38,361 nt of DNA from Promethearchaeota archaeon (GTDB lineage Archaea > Asgardarchaeota > Lokiarchaeia > Sigyniarchaeales > SOKP01). Within the stretch, counting starts at the first letter, position 1, and each line of letters starts with the position of its first letter. The stretch lies in assembly GCA_048939995.1 (NCBI GenBank), contig JBHLOY010000016.1, positions 1 through 38,361 of the forward strand. Direction: 5' to 3'. This document shows positions 24,053 through 31,238 of the stretch, one piece after another. Made by a program: the position numbers and the translations under genes. The notes under the pieces are model-generated. The model ran no database searches and was not told the origin of the DNA. It was given only the letters and a program-made list of their open reading frames with translations.

Positions 24053-25573
24053 ATGAAACAAACTACAAAATTTCGATTAAATCCGACGGTCTCGCAAGAG
24101 AGTAAATTATGTGAAATCTTTACTATTTATAATAAAGTAAAGCGAGTTGGATATAAATTATTTTATGAATTAAGAGATATGGATTTATCTAAAAATGAAA
24201 GACGTAAAATTATCCAACCTCAATTAATGGAACTTTGCCGGAATAATCCTTATGTAAATAGCATTCTAATCGACTGTGAGACAAAGTTAACTCAACAAGA
24301 AGCATGGCTTGAAAAGCGAGAAAGGTTCCTCACAAATCAAATCGAAACAATTAAGAAGAAAATAGCGAGGATTTTGGAAAAGGATACCAAGGATAGACGG
24401 TTAAAAGGACTTTATTCTCGGTTATCCTCTGCTGAAAACAAATTAATTACCATACAATTCAAACCTGTGTTATTTGGTACAAAGAGACTATTCAGAAAGC
24501 GACTATTACGAAAAATAAGTAAAGTTGAGTTTAGAATTCGAAGAGACTCATCGTTTTGTTGTGTAGGCAAAAGGAAAGGAGTTAATCTGAACTTGAAAGT
24601 CCTTCCCGACATGGCTTTAAAAGTAAGGACATTCTCTAAAGAGAAAGGAAAGAAATGGTTAATAATTCCCTTTACAATCAATTTCACTCAAGAAAAGTGG
24701 TTCAATGAAATACTTGGTTTAGAACTCTACAAAGTAGAAGTGATAAGGAGGCTCTATAAAGGAAGAGTCCGCTATTTTGCACATGTTTCCTACGAGACCG
24801 CAGAAGAAGAGCCTCTCCACGGTTTTGAAAATGGAGCGATTGGGCTTGACATGAATTACAATTTTGTTTCCCTTAGTAATGTGGATATACATGGGAACTT
24901 TAAGAGTTATCATGAAATAAAATTTGGAAATTTACATTCTTATCGTAGTAATAAGCGAAATGATTTTATTAGCTATAAAATGAACAAAGTGGTGAATTAT
25001 TGTATTCATAAAAATAAAGGATTGGTTATTGAAGACCTTTCTTTTGAACAAGAGTTCTCTTATGGAAAAAAACGCAATAGAAAATTAAATAATTTTAAAA
25101 CATCAGCATTAGATTTGTTAGAACGAAAATGCCTTAAACGAGGTGTTGCAATCAGGATAATACATCCTGCATACACTTCTTTAATTGGCAAGTATAAATA
25201 TTCACGTTTATATAACTTCTCTACTCATGTATTGGCAAGTTATGTAATAGCTCGAAAAGGTTTGGAGTTTAAGGAAGAGATTCCAGTCCGCTACAAGTGG
25301 TTGCTTGCACAAGTCGGGGACGCCATAAAACCCCGTTTGAAACCAAACAGTCCCTACCGTGAATGGGCTAAATTTCATGATTTTTTCAAGCATAGCAGGA
25401 TAACGTCCTTCAAGACTTCCGAAGTAATGAAAAAAGTATTACAAATGAAGTATGTCTTGAATTCGGTGACGAACGCACAGCCTGATAACCTTAGGGCTGG
25501 TCTTTCCACTACCGGAAAGATTGATGATTGGAATAAATTTTGGAATTTTGTAGAAATTGCCAATTTTTTATAA
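24053..25573 (+). CDS. tnpB: TnpB-family (IS200/IS605/IS607-related) RNA-guided nuclease-like protein; variant lacking the zinc finger, with His at RuvC-III
   Basis: RuvC-I IGLDMNY; RuvC-II LVIEDLSF; HPAYTSLIGKYKY...STHVLASYVIARKG; no CxxC pairs; no adjacent transposase. Confidence 0.9.
   Translation: MKQTTKFRLNPTVSQESKLCEIFTIYNKVKRVGYKLFYELRDMDLSKNERRKIIQPQLMELCRNNPYVNSILIDCETKLTQQEAWLEKRERFLTNQIETIKKKIARILEKDTKDRRLKGLYSRLSSAENKLITIQFKPVLFGTKRLFRKRLLRKISKVEFRIRRDSSFCCVGKRKGVNLNLKVLPDMALKVRTFSKEKGKKWLIIPFTINFTQEKWFNEILGLELYKVEVIRRLYKGRVRYFAHVSYETAEEEPLHGFENGAIGLDMNYNFVSLSNVDIHGNFKSYHEIKFGNLHSYRSNKRNDFISYKMNKVVNYCIHKNKGLVIEDLSFEQEFSYGKKRNRKLNNFKTSALDLLERKCLKRGVAIRIIHPAYTSLIGKYKYSRLYNFSTHVLASYVIARKGLEFKEEIPVRYKWLLAQVGDAIKPRLKPNSPYREWAKFHDFFKHSRITSFKTSEVMKKVLQMKYVLNSVTNAQPDNLRAGLSTTGKIDDWNKFWNFVEIANFL
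25315..25521 (+). ncRNA. Candidate omega-RNA scaffold overlapping the tnpB 3' coding region
   Basis: Stems cgggg/ccccg, gtttg/caaac, ttcg/cgaa, cagcc/ggctg and tctttcc/ggaaaga in a locally GC-richer stretch. TnpB omega-RNAs are known to overlap the ORF 3' end. Boundaries are a guess. Confidence 0.4.
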
Positions 25574-25709: not shown

Positions 25710-26108
25710 ATGGCAGTTTTGTGTAAAAGATGTGGGAGAGTTTTGAAATCAGCTAAGAGTATTGAATTAGGATATGGTCCCACATGTTATAAAATTATAA
25801 ATCTTCAAGATAATCCCATTAATGTACAAGAAGAAATCAAATTTTTAAAAATGGAAATAAAATTAGTTAAGAATATCATGAGGGAGTTAAGAACCAATAA
25901 TTTTACATCTTGTCAGAATTCCCCAATAATAAAAATAAGAAAAGAAGAAAAAAGACCTGAAAGGGAGATAAATAAAGGTCAAATGATAGAAGTAATTCAA
26001 GAATTAAAGACTTGTTTTCAAACTTGTGATGGAGATGTGAAAAACTTATTGAGACCAATCCAGATTGAACCAAATCTTAACAAATCTTCTCAGTTAGCTA
26101 TTGTTTAA
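25710..26108 (+). CDS. DUF6011-type zinc-finger protein with a coiled coil
   Basis: CKRCGRVLKSAKSIELGYGPTC matches the CxxCGRxL...S...GxGPxC pattern. Confidence 0.8.
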   Translation: MAVLCKRCGRVLKSAKSIELGYGPTCYKIINLQDNPINVQEEIKFLKMEIKLVKNIMRELRTNNFTSCQNSPIIKIRKEEKRPEREINKGQMIEVIQELKTCFQTCDGDVKNLLRPIQIEPNLNKSSQLAIV

Positions 26109-26116
26109 TGGGATTC

Positions 26117-26130
26117 TTTTTTTTTTTTTT
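26117..26130 (+). terminator. Oligo-T archaeal terminator candidate
   Basis: Long T run just after the DUF6011 stop codon. Confidence 0.5.
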
Positions 26131-26358
26131 ATAAATTCACTATATTGTTAATGATTTCATTTTATAAAACATGAATTAAGTACAAACTAAGTATAATTAT
26201 GAAGGATTTTTCTCGTTCCTTTAAACCGAATTTAATTACGGTAATCGAATTTTAAAAAAAGAGTAAAAATCCTAGCCACTAGATTTTAATAAGAAAGTTG
26301 CAATATATTTGAATAATATTTAGCATTGTAATATTTTATAAAGAGGAGTAATGATCTC

Positions 26359-27021
26359 ATGTCTTATGTTTACATGAAATCTTTAGAACATAAAGCTGAG
26401 AAATACGATAAAGGAATAAAATTGTTAACTTTGGGTAAACTAATAAAAGTTGAACAATATCTTGTTGAGAATTATCTTCTAAAGAATGATATTATTTTAG
26501 ATATTGGAATGGGAACCGGAACTCTGGCAATCTTAGCTGCTAAAAAAGGGGCTAAAGTCATAGGGATAGACAATTCAAAAAAAATGTTAGAAGTAGCCAG
26601 TAAAAAAATATCCGATGAAGGATTAAATCAAGAAATCGAGATTATGCATAAATCCGTAATAGAAATGGATGATACGTTTAATACCAAATCTTTTGATAAA
26701 ATAGTTGCCATTTTACTCTTTAGTGAATTATATGAAAAGGAACAAGAATTTTGTTTAAAACAAATAAATCGAATTCTAAAGGATAATGGGGAATTTTTTT
26801 TGATTGATGAGGTGAAACCAAAGAGGCTATGGAAAAAGGTTATTTATTTTATGATACGGGTTCCCTTAGCACTTATAACATTCCTTAGAACGCAATTAAC
26901 AACATCAGCTTTAGTAAATTTTGAAAAAAAATTAGCACAAAATGGATTTTCAATTGTAGAAGAAAAATTGTATCTCTTAGATACTTTAAAATTAATGAGA
27001 CTTAAGAAAGAAATATATTGA
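26359..27021 (+). CDS. cpaM: Class I SAM-dependent methyltransferase (corrinoid-protein-associated, CpaM-like)
   Basis: ILDIGMGTG motif I, VIGID, SFDKI; N-terminus YMKSLE...YDKGIKLLTLG; lies directly upstream of a corrinoid protein. The symbol comes from recall of this family and its context. Confidence 0.8.
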   Translation: MSYVYMKSLEHKAEKYDKGIKLLTLGKLIKVEQYLVENYLLKNDIILDIGMGTGTLAILAAKKGAKVIGIDNSKKMLEVASKKISDEGLNQEIEIMHKSVIEMDDTFNTKSFDKIVAILLFSELYEKEQEFCLKQINRILKDNGEFFLIDEVKPKRLWKKVIYFMIRVPLALITFLRTQLTTSALVNFEKKLAQNGFSIVEEKLYLLDTLKLMRLKKEIY

Positions 27022-27057
27022 AAAAATCAAATAAAGATCAATTTTTGAACGAAAAAT

Positions 27058-28155
27058 ATGAAAGTTGGAAATAGTTTAAAATTAATAGGGAGCTTTCTTT
27101 TTAGGTGGATCGGTTTTCCTATTGAGCCTCAATTAATGAAAATCGGGAACCCTAATAGTGAAAGTCCTGTTTTATTAACATGCAACTTTGCTTTAACTGT
27201 TAAGAGAGTTCTAAAAGCTATTCAGGGGCTAAACTGTTATCTTTTAATTGCTCCCTCTAATGGAATTAACGTCTGGTGTGGCGCATGTGGTGATGATTTT
27301 AATACAGATTCAGTTTTGTCAATTATTAAGACAAGTGGAATTGATAATTTAGTTTCTCACAGAAGCTTAATTCTACCTCAATTGAGTGCGCCAGGAATTG
27401 ATCCTATTATTATAAAGGAAAAAGTTGGATGGGAAGTCAAGTTTGGTCCTGTTTATGCTATAGATATTCCAGAATATATTGAAAGCAATTATCACAAATC
27501 AGATAATCAGAGTATTGTAAAGTTTCCTATTTCCCAAAAATTAGAGATTGGAACGATGTATTTTTTTACTTTATTTCTGCTATTTTCAGTGGTTTATTGG
27601 ATTTTAGCCACTTTTTTGCCAATTCTAAATATTATCCTATATATATCTAGTCTTTTTATTTTTATAGGGATTATTTATGGTTCTCTAATAATATTACCTA
27701 GCATTCAAACGAAGACGGGGAAGTTAAAAATATGGATATATGAAATAATAATAATCATATTAATCCTTACATTCAATTTATTCATAATCAAATCTCTATT
27801 CATTCTTATCTGGGAATTGCTTCTATCCTTGTTTTTAACATTAATTATGGCAGAAGATTTTCATGGTTTAACTCCTATTTATAAGAGCGAATTAGGGGAA
27901 AAAAAATGGAAACAAGGTAAAAAGAAGATGAGATTTCTATTTGAAGAATATAAGTTACAACCTTATGGACAAATCTATATTGAGAGAGAAAAATGTATTG
28001 GATGCAGATTATGTATTGAAGTATGTCCAAGAAGCGTATATCTCTTTAATGAAGAAAATAAGAAGGCAATTTTACAATTTCCATCTAAATGCATCAATTG
28101 CAATGCCTGTATAAATAGATGTTTAGCGAATTGTTTAAGTCTGAAATTGCCTTAG
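27058..28155 (+). CDS. hgcAB: HgcAB-like fusion protein: HgcA/CdhD-type corrinoid domain + TM helices + 2x[4Fe-4S] ferredoxin
   Basis: IGNPNSESPVLLTCNF, GINVWCGACG, LILPQLSAPGI, FGPVYAIDIPEY; about 4 TM helices; CIGCRLCIEVCP and CINCNACINRC. Mercury methylation is not established. Confidence 0.9.
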   Translation: MKVGNSLKLIGSFLFRWIGFPIEPQLMKIGNPNSESPVLLTCNFALTVKRVLKAIQGLNCYLLIAPSNGINVWCGACGDDFNTDSVLSIIKTSGIDNLVSHRSLILPQLSAPGIDPIIIKEKVGWEVKFGPVYAIDIPEYIESNYHKSDNQSIVKFPISQKLEIGTMYFFTLFLLFSVVYWILATFLPILNIILYISSLFIFIGIIYGSLIILPSIQTKTGKLKIWIYEIIIIILILTFNLFIIKSLFILIWELLLSLFLTLIMAEDFHGLTPIYKSELGEKKWKQGKKKMRFLFEEYKLQPYGQIYIEREKCIGCRLCIEVCPRSVYLFNEENKKAILQFPSKCINCNACINRCLANCLSLKLP

Positions 28156-28203: not shown

Positions 28204-30225
28204 CTAATCAAGGTTCTTCAATTTTTCTTGTTCTTTTAACTTCTTTTTTTCTAGTTTTTTCTTTTGTTTTTCCAATTTTTTTTGTTTTTTTGCCTCTTGT
28301 TTTGCTTCTTTTTCTTTTTGTTTTCGTTCTAGTTTTAACCTTTTAAGTTCTTGTTTCTCTCTTTCAATAGCTTCTAGTTCTGCTTGTTCTTTTTTTAATC
28401 GTTCTGTTTCTAATCTTAAAGCTTCTTCTTTCTCTCTTTCAATTTTTTCCAATCGTTCTCTTTTCAAATGTTCTTGGGCTAGCCTTTCCTTTTCTACACG
28501 CATTTGTTCCAGCCGCTCCATTTCTTTTCTCTGCATTTCTTGTCTTTCTCGCTCTTTTCTTTCCCGTTCTAATCTTTCTAATCTTTCTTTCTCCAAACGA
28601 GCTTTTTCTATTCGTTCTTTTTCCAACCTTTCTCGTTCTGCAATCTCAAAAATCCACTCATCGATTTTTCGAGACAAGTCCCCTTTTTCTTTTTCTGACA
28701 ATCCAAAACCCGGTTCTTTTTTAATATAAATATTAGTATATTTACTCATTTCCCAGATTTTCGCTTGGTGTAGCGTGGTTGAGCTTACTCCCATTTGTCG
28801 TGCACTTTCTCTCGCAACCTCAAAAGCTTGTCCGATAGATGGCATATCATAATTTTCTGCGATTACTTTTTTTAAGTAGAGAAGTATTTGGTTAATATCT
28901 GGGTTAGGTGGTGGCGGTAATGGTTTAAGTTCCACAGTTTCAGATTTTAAAGTTTCTAATTCAAATGCTTCTTGTTCCATTTCTCGTATTTCCGTTCGTA
29001 TTTTGGAAATATCGGGAGCTTTCGCATCAATTTGTTCCCAGTTTGAGGGTGATTCTACAAGTTTGGGTAATACTTTAGATTCTTGTTTTGCTTTTCTCTG
29101 AAATTGAATAGGCCAACTGATAAATGCATAAAGACGATCTTCAGCCGAGGCAAAAACCGATGCTTTAGAAGTACCTGAGTCTCGTTTTGAAGAAATTGGT
29201 GGCATATTCGATCTTAAATTTAATCCTGCTTGTTCTATTATGGAGAATAGATACATAGGATCAAACTCAAGATTAGAATAAATCCTTTTTAAGGTTTTAA
29301 TATTATCCTCAATAATGCTGAGGTTCATATTAGAGATTGTTGCATCTAAAAGTGCATCTGCTGTAAATTTAATCCCATATAACCCTGCTGTTGGGTTGAG
29401 GTAAGCTGAGTCTCCACTGGTTCTCATTTTATCAGAAACCAAGATTTGGTTATAATAATCCCAATGTGCACTTATAATCTTATGACCTTCAATTGAGATG
29501 GGATATGAATCCTCTTTTCGTATTTGTTCCATCATTTCCAAAAAGATATCCTTATGAGGTATAAACACATTTCGCATTAGCGCCCCCTTTATGAAGGTTA
29601 AGTGGTCCTCTGATTTATTAGACAAATCAACAGGGACTTTTATCACTTTTTCTGCTATAATTACGTCGGGATCTTCTTCTAAAGTGATATTTGCTGAAGT
29701 AGCCATTAAATCATACGCGAAATCAGGTAATACTAATCCAGTTAATATTCTCTTATCAGTCACATATTTGCCGGACTCTAATTCAAATTTAAGAAAGTAA
29801 TAGCCTATGCCAAATAAGTAATGAAGAGTTCCTTTATTAGTTTCAATTGAATAATCATACCCACTAAAAAAGATAACGCCATCTGTCTCAATTTTTGAGA
29901 CGGGATGATTAACATAGGTTCCTAGTGCGGGATAGCCTAATAAATCACTCCAACTAGGGATCATAAAGAGTGAGTTATTGGGATATAATTTGCTATCCAT
30001 TTTCAGTTGTTCAAATCGTTCTTTTTGGAGCCTTTCTCTTTCAAGTCGTTCCATTTCAAGTCGTTCCATTTCAAGTCTTTCTTTTTCAAGTCTTTCTTGC
30101 TCTAGTCTTTCTTGTTCTAACCTTTCTTGCTCAAGCTTTTCTTGTTCAATTCTTTCTTTTTCAAGGATTTCCTCTTCTGACTCTTCTCTTTCCCATGGAT
30201 CTTCAATTGATTTATCAAACCCCAT
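28204..30225 (-). CDS. Hypothetical protein with E/R/K-rich helical repeats at both ends and an unknown globular core
   Basis: (LEQER/LEMER)n near the N-terminus; long ERLEKE-rich C-terminus; PLPPPP motif. Confidence 0.85.
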   Translation of the reverse strand: MGFDKSIEDPWEREESEEEILEKERIEQEKLEQERLEQERLEQERLEKERLEMERLEMERLERERLQKERFEQLKMDSKLYPNNSLFMIPSWSDLLGYPALGTYVNHPVSKIETDGVIFFSGYDYSIETNKGTLHYLFGIGYYFLKFELESGKYVTDKRILTGLVLPDFAYDLMATSANITLEEDPDVIIAEKVIKVPVDLSNKSEDHLTFIKGALMRNVFIPHKDIFLEMMEQIRKEDSYPISIEGHKIISAHWDYYNQILVSDKMRTSGDSAYLNPTAGLYGIKFTADALLDATISNMNLSIIEDNIKTLKRIYSNLEFDPMYLFSIIEQAGLNLRSNMPPISSKRDSGTSKASVFASAEDRLYAFISWPIQFQRKAKQESKVLPKLVESPSNWEQIDAKAPDISKIRTEIREMEQEAFELETLKSETVELKPLPPPPNPDINQILLYLKKVIAENYDMPSIGQAFEVARESARQMGVSSTTLHQAKIWEMSKYTNIYIKKEPGFGLSEKEKGDLSRKIDEWIFEIAERERLEKERIEKARLEKERLERLERERKERERQEMQRKEMERLEQMRVEKERLAQEHLKRERLEKIEREKEEALRLETERLKKEQAELEAIEREKQELKRLKLERKQKEKEAKQEAKKQKKLEKQKKKLEKKKLKEQEKLKNLD
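30030..30160 (-). repeat. Imperfect 15-bp coding tandem repeats (LExER pentads)
   Basis: ttcaagtcgttccat x2 followed by degenerate copies. Confidence 0.75.
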
Positions 30226-30398: not shown

Positions 30399-31238
30399 AT
30401 GAAGCGATCGAGATTAGGAAATTATTTGTGCATTACAAGTCTTTTAATAGTAATTGTTTCTCTGATCATATTGATTATAGTAAATGCAGAATATATATCT
30501 GAATTAATAGCTTTTTTAGTCATTATTCTAATACTACCACTTTTAAGCGGCTTTTTAGGTATTCTAGTAGCCATCATATATCGTGATTTTATACCTCGCA
30601 AATCTATGGAATATCCGATTAGAATGATTAGAAGGGATTCAAAGGAACCAGAAAAAATGAGAATGAAAATTTCATTATTAGGGGATCCTGTTTTAGGTAA
30701 TGGATTACTCCGGAAGTATCGTTCCGGTCTTTTCCTGGCAAATAATAAATTAATCCTTGGGTTTGATCTCTATACTAAGATCTTTTATCAACAAGATAAA
30801 AATTCTTCATTGAGGAGAACAATACAGTTAGAAATATGGGATATGACAAGAATAGACAAGAGTAAATTTATTGAAATGTTAAAATATTATATTTCTGGTT
30901 CACAATGCGTTATTATTGTGCATGATGTTACAAATCTAGAAGCATTGGAGCGTTTGCCTTTTTGGTTACAAACTATTCGAGAAATTAGTCGTAAGATCCT
31001 CGTTTTCTTAATAGTTAATAAAATTCATTTAGTAGAGACTGACAAAGTAATTAAAGAGGAAGGTATTGAAACCACTAATATGTATAATCTATCGCATTCC
31101 ATGAAAACGTCTTCAAACGCTAGCCAAGATATTGAAAAATCATTCAAATCTTTAGTTGAATTGATAATTCAACTACGTACTCAAAATAGGGTGAAAGAGA
31201 ATATAACAAATAAAGGCTCCAATGATTTCCAGAATTAG
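30399..31238 (+). CDS. Membrane-anchored Rab-like small GTPase with degenerate motifs (probable pseudo-GTPase)
   Basis: Two N-terminal TM helices; KISLLGDPVLGNG (G1), IQLEIWDMTR (G3), IIVHDVTN, LIVNKIHL (G4), KTSSN (G5). Confidence 0.85.
   Translation: MKRSRLGNYLCITSLLIVIVSLIILIIVNAEYISELIAFLVIILILPLLSGFLGILVAIIYRDFIPRKSMEYPIRMIRRDSKEPEKMRMKISLLGDPVLGNGLLRKYRSGLFLANNKLILGFDLYTKIFYQQDKNSSLRRTIQLEIWDMTRIDKSKFIEMLKYYISGSQCVIIVHDVTNLEALERLPFWLQTIREISRKILVFLIVNKIHLVETDKVIKEEGIETTNMYNLSHSMKTSSNASQDIEKSFKSLVELIIQLRTQNRVKENITNKGSNDFQN

Follow-up and report, generated by a model that had tools for sequence, protein, structure and literature searches.

The window analyzed here, a 38,361-nucleotide stretch of a Promethearchaeota archaeon genome (contig JBHLOY010000016.1), contains two co-oriented genes that lie 36 bp apart (Table 1). 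The first, cpaM, encodes a class I SAM methyltransferase (Pfam Methyltransf_25/31/11), and the second, hgcAB-like, encodes a corrinoid protein that is continuous with a membrane domain and a ferredoxin. Since both proteins exceed the cut-offs of curated families and have hundreds of homologues, this gene pair is not a product of chance. The spacer between the two genes ranges from −1 to 116 bp in homologous loci. A possible TATA-box-like element, TTTATAAA, is found approximately 17-24 nt 5′ of the cpaM start, and an oligo-T run (26116-26131) falls after the upstream gene and before this element. The initial annotation of this DNA was right in every detail of what it saw in the sequence: the coordinates of both open reading frames agree, the CdhD-type corrinoid domain, four helices, and two CxxCxxCxxxC clusters are all present in the 365-aa protein, the cap helix reads GINVWCGACGDD, and there is no vicinal CC at the C-terminus, where the protein ends in CLANCLSLKLP.

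Table 1. Features of the cpaM and hgcAB-like locus, with positions numbered along the window.
Feature	Position	Strand	Basis
TATA-box-like element TTTATAAA (putative)	26335-26342	+	Read from sequence
cpaM: corrinoid protein-associated class I SAM methyltransferase, 220 aa	26359-27021	+	NF043040, Pfam
Spacer between cpaM and hgcAB-like, 36 bp	27022-27057	+	Read from sequence
hgcAB-like fusion gene, 365 aa: corrinoid-binding domain, 4 TM helices, 2x[4Fe-4S] ferredoxin domain	27058-28155	+	NF043039, AlphaFold2 model
Corrinoid-binding (Rossmann-like) domain, residues 20-145	27115-27492	+	Pfam CdhD, PDB CFeSP alignments, AlphaFold2 secondary structure
Cap-helix segment GINVWCGACGDD, residues 69-80	27262-27297	+	Motif, alignments
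Cys74, predicted cobalt ligand	27277-27279	+	Aligns with Thr of CFeSP VLT triplet
Cys77, clade-specific second Cys of cap helix	27286-27288	+	Present in 60/99 family members
Four predicted transmembrane helices, residues 158-266	27529-27855	+	AlphaFold2 helices
HgcB-like dicluster ferredoxin domain, residues 290-363	27925-28146	+	Pfam Fer4_10/Fer4_7

The HgcAB-like protein scores 361 bits against NCBIfam NF043039 (HgcAB-like fusion protein, curated cut-off 285 bits), with residues 10-360 aligned to profile positions 4-349 of 350, and a six-frame search of the genome with this model recovers the window gene at 360.6 bits. The architecture that defines the family is found here in one chain: an NVWC-capped corrinoid domain, followed by a membrane domain and, at the C-terminus, a 2x[4Fe-4S] ferredoxin. 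Pfam assigns residues 23-136 to the C-terminal, B12-binding portion of PF03599 (CdhD) and residues 306-358 to a 4Fe-4S dicluster domain, with cluster motifs formed by C313/C316/C319/C323 and C345/C348/C351/C355. The AlphaFold2 model (pLDDT 96.4, pTM 0.91) contains four long helices (158-186, 192-215, 221-244, and 247-266) that separate the corrinoid domain from the ferredoxin domain, bearing out the "about 4 TM helices" of the initial annotation. The structure closest to it is 9a0b_A/B, a published computational model of HgcAB; a sequence search for an experimental HgcA structure found none, and 9a0b is the only match. The corrinoid domain superimposes on CFeSP large subunits with an rmsd of 1.6-2.2 Å over ~126 residues, and the cap helix lines up with the helix of CFeSP that is turned toward the lower face of the corrin. 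Among 99 members of the HgcAB-like family, the invariant positions belong to the Co-ligand motif (G69, N71, W73, and C74) and to the cluster cysteines, seven of which never vary (C316 is present in 85/99), while C77 occurs in only 60/99. An extra cysteine past the second cluster motif, Cys359, is shared by 63 of the 99, mostly together with C77.

CpaM matches NCBIfam NF043040 at 254.2 bits (curated cut-off 180 bits), with residues 2-216 covering profile positions 1-215 of 216. Membership in this family is tied to a position beside, or fused with, an HgcA-type corrinoid protein, and the window gene lies immediately upstream of one. Motif I reads LDIGMGTGT, and the family invariants are M6, L9, E10, Y16, D17, L47, G50, G52, D71, M76, S122, E123, L140, and P154; no cysteine is conserved across 21 CpaM-type sequences. 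The nearest family by sequence is UbiE/MenG (66.8 bits) and the nearest folds found by Foldseek are PmtA (8ys9), Coq5, and CmoA. These relatives act on small molecules and lipids, as in UbiE/MenG, Coq5, and the phospholipid N-methyltransferase PmtA, so CpaM could have an organic substrate of its own. Identity with ArsM was considered and rejected, with ArsM-type models scoring 32-39 bits against cut-offs of 263-575 and no conserved As(III)-binding Cys. Our literature search found no mention of CpaM, nor a biochemical study of any member of the two families.

The initial annotation had staked its interpretation on a conserved linkage of the two genes across genomes, and this linkage is pervasive. 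In 400 Asgard genomes, cpaM is directly upstream on the same strand in 76 of the 82 HgcAB-like matches above the cut-off, the other 6 being at contig ends or undecidable, and the same holds for 32/33 named loci, including that of the cultured Promethearchaeum syntrophicum MK-D1. All 4 testable distant members (31-37% identity, without the second cap Cys) likewise have a class I methyltransferase of ~220 aa as their immediate upstream neighbor. A canonical hgcA-hgcB locus used as a control has no methyltransferase neighbor. In 14 genomes, all three modules are found in a single CpaM::HgcAB-like open reading frame of 587-652 aa, one of which is predicted to fold into a compact body (pLDDT 93.7, pTM 0.92), and methyltransferase-fused forms occur at no fewer than 3 separate places in the tree. 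All-against-all clustering of open reading frames from the 33 loci revealed no third conserved gene, only these two being universal; a 177-aa open reading frame is found downstream in 13/33 but is absent from the window. One distant member has radical-SAM and hydrolase genes around it. There are also relatives of ~470-500 aa with a different N-terminal extension, in which no Pfam domain was found; the one such locus that we looked at starts at the gene.

A second system in the same genome contains the same three modules divided differently. On contig C11, a 556-aa CpaM-like::HgcA-like protein, whose N-terminal methyltransferase matches CpaM at 147.6 bits, is followed by a separate HgcB-like ferredoxin, an arrangement conserved in 20/20 further loci. 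Here it is the methyltransferase that is joined to the corrinoid/TM protein, while the ferredoxin stands apart and has a Cys-rich tail; the cap reads NVWCAARG, and in the tree the protein is placed beside true HgcA (support 93). This system adjoins ACR3 and DUF166, and we considered a link to arsenic, but ACR3 is nearby in only 3 of the 20 related loci, CpaM has no conserved cysteines, and the window contains no arsenic genes. The near-obligate adjacency, the recurrent natural fusions, and this second, differently cut system together argue that the methyltransferase and the corrinoid-membrane-ferredoxin protein form one functional unit, as the initial annotation had proposed.

How this unit relates to known corrinoid proteins can be seen from what it shares with each of them. 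With HgcA and HgcB it has in common a corrinoid domain of CFeSP type under a Cys-bearing NVWC cap, together with a membrane domain and a dicluster ferredoxin as partner. However, the window protein reaches only 156.5 bits against the HgcA model NF040863 (cut-off 275) and 43.4 bits against the HgcB model NF040864 (cut-off 99), and its cap has GACGDD where HgcA has A(A/G)GK. The high-stringency Hg-MATE rule for the HgcA cap is N[VI]WC[AS][AGS]GK (10.1101/2022.03.14.484253), from which the window departs with NVWCGACG followed by DD and no GK. A vicinal CC is absent from the last 25 residues of all 120 homologues, and it is this CC (C94/C95) that matters for Hg methylation in HgcB (PMC11588087). 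In a quick tree of 140 columns with many unresolved forks, the GK-motif HgcA sequences form one clade (SH-aLRT 98), and the window protein falls elsewhere, with P0089 and P0120-P0123. Taken together, the missed HgcA cut-off, the cap without GK, and the position outside the GK-HgcA clade bear out the earlier view that this is not a true HgcA. The window protein also has four predicted TM helices versus the five reported for HgcA, an even number that would return the fused ferredoxin to the side of the corrinoid domain. The CFeSP large subunit (AcsC/CdhE) of the Wood-Ljungdahl pathway contains a homologous B12-binding domain (2h9a/2ycl/4djd, E 7e-11 to 4e-9), but only ~125 residues are common to the two, the N-terminal cluster and TIM-barrel domains of CFeSP are lacking, and CFeSP has Thr at the position of Cys74. 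The match to NF003195 (AcsC/CdhE) reaches 87.9 bits against a cut-off of 306 and is confined to positions 324-448 of 450; a separate CdhE-type gene is present in the same genome.

The reading that we favor, and consider reasonably probable, is that the products of cpaM and hgcAB-like together make up a single corrinoid methyltransferase with three modules and a membrane anchor, which moves a methyl group from SAM to Co(I) in a Cys-on state and then to an acceptor other than mercury. In the chemistry that we infer, the C-terminal 2x[4Fe-4S] domain would supply low-potential electrons to generate Co(I), CpaM would bind SAM and catalyze or assist methylation to methyl-Co(III), Cys74, invariant in the cap helix, would provide the lower axial thiolate as the corresponding Cys does in HgcA, and the methyl group would be handed on, at or within the membrane, to an acceptor. 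This acceptor is probably not Hg(II), since both the Cys-rich tail of HgcB and the GK cap signature of HgcA are missing. SAM-dependent class I methyltransferases are effectively irreversible, so flow in the demethylating direction, which the initial annotation had allowed for, is implausible through CpaM. Loading of a SAM methyl onto the corrinoid, which it had also suggested, is the most economical reading, given that SAM is the established methyl donor of true HgcAB, in which cobalamin is methylated via methyl-Co(III) with Co-S ligation (PMC11588087). The earlier interpretation holds up as to the functional unit, the loading of the corrinoid, and the distinction from true HgcA, but not as to reverse flow or the meaning of the cap motif.

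The same precedent also offers a complication. The window pair has a dedicated methyltransferase partner, which the canonical hgcAB locus does not, and in true HgcAB SAM is used with no separate methyltransferase (PMC11588087). The task of CpaM might therefore be one other than loading the corrinoid. If CpaM acted as the terminal methyltransferase on an organic or lipid substrate, with the HgcAB-like protein carrying out separate corrinoid chemistry in the same pathway, such as reductive dehalogenation or some other reduction, then SAM would never methylate cobalt. The relatives of CpaM that act on quinones and lipids would fit such a role, as would the report in a 2026 preprint that HgcAB dechlorinates CCl4 (10.64898/2026.04.26.720869) and the radical-SAM and hydrolase neighbors of one distant member. 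We nonetheless regard this division of labor as unlikely, because no further pathway gene is conserved beside the pair in 33 loci, and because the methyltransferase has repeatedly become covalently fused to the corrinoid domain, in a form predicted with confidence to fold compactly, which suggests that the two work directly together on a single cofactor. Another role for CpaM would be repair only, the reductive re-methylation of inactive Co(II), with the catalytic methyl group coming from another donor. Methionine synthase reactivates its inactive cofactor in this SAM-dependent way. A built-in ferredoxin and a SAM-binding partner are what such a step would require, and corrinoid methyltransferases do need reductive reactivation (PMC11588087). 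On the other hand, strict stoichiometry and repeated fusion are not expected of a repair factor, and no MtrH/MeTr-like or MttB-like methyl-donor methyltransferase is linked to the pair in the 33 loci, which makes a purely restorative function quite improbable.

Least probable of all, and in our view very doubtful, is a role of the module in mercury methylation itself, as a variant of fused HgcAB that has its SAM site on a separate subunit. The features held in common with HgcAB, namely the NVWC motif with its Cys ligand, the membrane domain, and the dicluster ferredoxin, speak for this proposal, and the failure of P. furiosus to methylate Hg is no proof of an inactive enzyme (Podar et al., PMC4646819). 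Against it stand the subthreshold HgcA score, the loss of the cap GK demanded by the high-stringency rule, the lack of the HgcB-type CC in all 120 homologues, and the placement of the window protein in our coarse tree, and neither of the two tested cultured carriers of fused HgcAB yielded methylmercury.

Returning to the SAM-driven methyltransferase that we favor, the cap helix itself says less about the acceptor than had been thought. The initial annotation read the extra Cys of NVWCGAC as a sign of a different acceptor and called for a survey of its co-occurrence with the methyltransferase. NVWCGAC is the majority motif of the Asgard clade (98/120 close homologues), the second Cys is replaced elsewhere in the family, triple fusions included, by G/A/S/T/R/V/E, and the methyltransferase partner is present whether or not this Cys is. 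The motif alone therefore cannot indicate a different acceptor, nor does it mark a special subfamily tied to the methyltransferase. Given the lower-face position of this helix in the CFeSP alignment, it is more likely that the second cap-helix Cys tunes or gates the Co-S ligand than that it binds substrate. An extended version of this idea, which we offer as an outside chance, would have a SAM-driven, Cys-on cobamide methyltransferase with a non-mercury membrane acceptor in which the CxxC pair of the cap helix (C74/C77) and the co-occurring Cys359 of the ferredoxin tail act as a thiol switch or relay to gate the Co-S bond in the Asgard/Bathyarchaeia clade. If this were true, the methyltransferase-linked relatives rather than HgcAB would represent the original function of the superfamily, with mercury methylation as a side branch.

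Existing records show that the system is not a new one. NCBIfam already names both proteins and their association (NF043040 and NF043039), a protein 98% identical to the window HgcAB-like is labeled "HgcAB-like fusion protein" at NCBI, and an Asgard clade of fused HgcAB has been published (10.1101/2022.11.21.517362). The window pair is the "fused HgcAB" of Podar 2015, Gilmour 2018, and Lin 2023, with CpaM, and differs from it in no material way; its architecture, gene order, and spacing match those of hundreds of homologues. It is thus an ordinary, already annotated copy that adds no new kind of system, a typical two-gene form in which CpaM is unfused and the cap helix carries NVWCGACG, the most frequent variant in the Asgard clade. 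A wider point for mercury biogeochemistry is the natural function of the HgcAB superfamily: its methyltransferase-linked HgcAB-like branch occurs broadly across Asgard archaea, Bathyarchaeia, and bacteria, and it confounds counts of mercury methylators made from metagenomes.

Both genes of the pair, which lie on the same strand 36 bp apart in an AT-rich window (G+C approximately 27-35% around them) of a 3.75-Mb genome in 38 contigs, belong to families with curated NCBIfam cut-offs. By these cut-offs, the first ORF, a class I SAM methyltransferase (Pfam Methyltransf_25/31/11), is a corrinoid protein-associated methyltransferase, CpaM (NF043040, 254.2 bits versus 180), and the second is an HgcAB-like fusion protein (NF043039, 361 bits versus 285), while it falls below the thresholds for HgcA (NF040863, 156.5 versus 275), HgcB (NF040864, 43.4 versus 99) and the CFeSP large subunit (NF003195, 87.9 versus 306). 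The nearest database protein, 98% identical and from an Asgard MAG, is already named "HgcAB-like fusion protein" at NCBI, and the approximately 100 matches after it, 355-375 aa long, come from Promethearchaeota, Odin-, Thor- and Bathyarchaeia. NCBIfam already lists the two families under these names and associates them with each other; no use of the name CpaM was found in the literature searched. Fused HgcAB proteins have likewise been published as a clade with Asgard members: the family was described in 2015 (PMC4646819) and an Asgard sub-clade has been noted (10.1101/2022.11.21.517362). The window copy is a typical member of a known module.

Coordinates of the gene pair, its neighbors and related features
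Feature	Location	Strand	Product	Remarks
ORF	24053-25573	+	506 aa	weak N-terminal HTH_OrfB_IS605 match, E 0.007
DUF6011 gene	25710-26108	+	132 aa	N-terminal zinc-ribbon-like motif CKRCGRVL...GPTC, Pfam E 2e-10
cpaM	26359-27021	+	220 aa	
hgcAB-like	27058-28155	+	365 aa	
C77 codon	27286-27288			
C359 codon	28132-28134			
Repeat protein gene	28204-30225	-	673 aa	ERLEQ/ERLEK-type charged repeats at both ends
Ras/Roc-family small GTPase gene	30399-31238	+	279 aa	Pfam Ras, E 1e-17
Second system of the genome (G000), contig C11	L009:9109-12979	-	556 aa, 104 aa	DUF166, ACR3 arsenite efflux gene, CpaM-like::HgcA-like, HgcB-like
Insert between cpaM and hgcAB-like	L036:1657-2648			about 1 kb
Insert between cpaM and hgcAB-like	G140:C78:1657-2678			about 1 kb

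The initial annotation had described two genes, the second with a corrinoid domain, about four TM helices and two cluster motifs, and every element is borne out by the ORFs, Pfam and an AlphaFold2 model. In the second ORF, the C-terminal B12-binding part of PF03599 covers residues 23-136, the cap-helix segment GINVWCGACGDD residues 69-80 and a 4Fe-4S dicluster domain residues 306-358, with CxxCxxCxxxC motifs at 313-323 and 345-355 and no CC pair at the C-terminal end of the protein. The model, which draws on 99 homologues, reaches very high confidence (pLDDT 96.4, pTM 0.91). Besides a Rossmann-like domain and a ferredoxin fold at 290-363, it has one short helix (72-77) and, within 158-266, four long ones. 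In structural comparison it comes closest to a published HgcAB model, likewise computational (9a0b, chains A and B), and its corrinoid domain superposes with CFeSP large subunits at 1.6-2.2 Å; a search of known structures turned up no experimental HgcA structure. Five TM helices are reported for HgcA, whereas four are predicted here, so the fused ferredoxin would be back on the corrinoid-domain side.

The partnership of cpaM with hgcAB-like is near-obligate. When 400 Asgard-phylum genomes were searched with both family models and the coordinates of matches paired by hand, 76 of the 82 HgcAB-like genes above cut-off proved to be preceded on their own strand by an immediately adjacent CpaM match, in most cases at a distance of 35-120 bp; the other 6 lie at contig ends or are undecidable. 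In a species-representative genome collection searched by tblastn, cpaM is upstream in 32 of 33 named loci, including that of Promethearchaeum syntrophicum MK-D1; the lone exception has just 147 bp of upstream sequence. Genome G143, which by its coordinates appears to be that of MK-D1, is classed in the same taxonomic order as the window genome. Four distant members (31-37% identity; caps NVWCASAG, NVWCAATG, NVWCAAGA and NVWCAAGM) all follow immediately on a class I methyltransferase of 218-242 aa, and none was found beside the one canonical hgcA-hgcB locus taken as a control. The possibility raised at the outset, that the linkage is not conserved, therefore clearly fails. Clustering of all flanking ORFs of the 33 loci gave no further conserved neighbor gene. 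Two genomes carry an insert between the genes, which are approximately 40 bp apart elsewhere, and at the locus of P0190, a distant HgcAB-like protein (L084), the pair follows an alpha/beta hydrolase gene and two genes of the radical-SAM (HemN-like) type, surroundings that, for some lineages, hint at a biosynthetic setting.

CpaM and the HgcAB-like protein share one open frame in 14 genomes from at least 3 family-level groups, and the sequences retrieved confirm this: each is one uninterrupted ORF of 587-652 aa that contains the SAM motif, the cap helix and the two cluster motifs. The window genome itself encodes a second system. In it, a fusion protein matches CpaM over its N-terminal half (147.6 bits) and continues in its C-terminal half as a corrinoid/membrane protein of HgcA-like type (cap NVWCAARG); next comes a stand-alone HgcB-like ferredoxin whose tail is rich in Cys. 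This pair is kept in every one of 20 other Asgard loci. One set of methyltransferase (MT), corrinoid/membrane (A) and ferredoxin (B) modules thereby occurs as MT apart from A-B (the window), MT-A apart from B, and MT-A-B, which argues that the modules work together and is strong comparative evidence for their cooperation. ACR3 is near just 3 of the 20 related loci, so the arsenic link that its adjacency, with DUF166, might suggest for the second system is weak. Separately, in P0255 (724 aa), which came from the search for family representatives, a GK-motif corrinoid/membrane protein of true-HgcA type is covalently linked to an N-terminal domain of an arsenical-type permease family (ArsP_1, PF03773, E 1e-40).

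In a quick maximum-likelihood tree of the corrinoid domain (140 columns, 133 rows, the genome's own CdhE as outgroup), in which many forks lack resolution and fragments make up many of the A-only rows, the HgcA sequences with a GK motif group in a single supported clade (SH-aLRT 98), with the MT-A forms, including the genome's second system, as nearest neighbors (support 93). The window protein groups apart from them with other C-containing caps (support 94), and methyltransferase-fused AB forms appear at 3 or more separate places.

The likeliest reading, which we favor with some reserve, is that reduction by the ferredoxin domain would form Co(I), that CpaM would then transfer a methyl group from SAM to the cobalt of a cobamide ligated by Cys74, forming methyl-Co(III), and that the methyl would pass to an acceptor, probably not mercury. 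For true HgcAB, a 2024 study showed that SAM methylates the cobalamin, with Co-S ligation (PMC11588087). If CpaM instead had its own substrate and the corrinoid protein did other chemistry, its nearest folds, the phospholipid N-methyltransferase PmtA (8ys9), Coq5 and CmoA, would sit comfortably, but the recurrent fusions would not, and we regard this as unlikely. That CpaM serves only to repair oxidised cofactor we rate slightly lower still. A genuine mercury methylase, for which the match to the HgcAB model might speak, is very improbable: the two tested cultured carriers of fused HgcAB, Pyrococcus furiosus and Methanococcoides methylutens, made no methylmercury (PMC5893877), HgcB C73, C94 and C95 matter for mercury methylation (PMC11588087), and the Hg-MATE protocol sets fused forms aside, defining true HgcA by N[VI]WC[AS][AGS]GK.

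The NVWCGAC cap, initially singled out as distinguishing, is the norm in its clade: 98 of the 120 closest homologues have NVWCGACG and 13 more NVWCASCG. From a library of 1.84 billion proteins, 150 representatives were taken at 50% identity; their second-Cys position holds C, A, T, G, S, R, V or L, and the MT-A-B fusions also vary there (C, V, E). The true HgcA cap is NVWCAAGKG[TS]. G69, N71, W73 and C74 are invariant in the 99-sequence family alignment, while C77 is present in 60%. Published work on CFeSP and HgcA places the helix bearing C74 as a cap below the corrin, on its lower face, and in the CFeSP alignment C74 falls at the Thr of VLT and C77 at the Ala three residues on. The second Cys is present as annotated, but rather than signaling a different acceptor it would, by this analogy, more plausibly modulate the Co-S ligand than bind substrate. 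C77 and C359, the latter four residues past the last cluster ligand, just beyond the second cluster motif, are both present in 57 and both absent in 33 of 99 related members, with 9 discordant; since the sequences are related, this is only a lead, and the cause may be common descent or a thiol pair with a function. A sub-clade of approximately 470-500 aa (P0176, P0195, P0212, P0220, P0233, P0236 and P0266) has a distinct cap, N[VI]WCSSLA, and an N-terminal extension of approximately 140-150 aa with no Pfam match, which may replace the methyltransferase module.

Across 21 CpaM-type sequences (stand-alone proteins and the N-termini of triple and MT-A fusions), what never varies is the M..LE.....YD signature at the N-terminus, the SAM motif I pattern L.[IL]G.G and the residues D71, M76, S122-E123 and P154. 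In contrast to ArsM, they have no conserved Cys. A conserved hydrophobic segment at approximately 155-182 aligns with a long helix (164-185) in the model of a triple fusion; fold and helix are compatible with action at the membrane surface and name no substrate.

An ORF for what is possibly a TnpB/OrfB-type transposon-associated protein lies just upstream of the DUF6011 gene and the cassette; a long stretch of oligo-T comes after the DUF6011 gene. The downstream repeat protein has no Pfam match; three further loci encode a homologue close to the cassette, and with the window the cluster counts 4 loci. The GTPase beyond it has an N-terminal hydrophobic extension that is probably membrane-spanning; this is typical of Asgard genomes.
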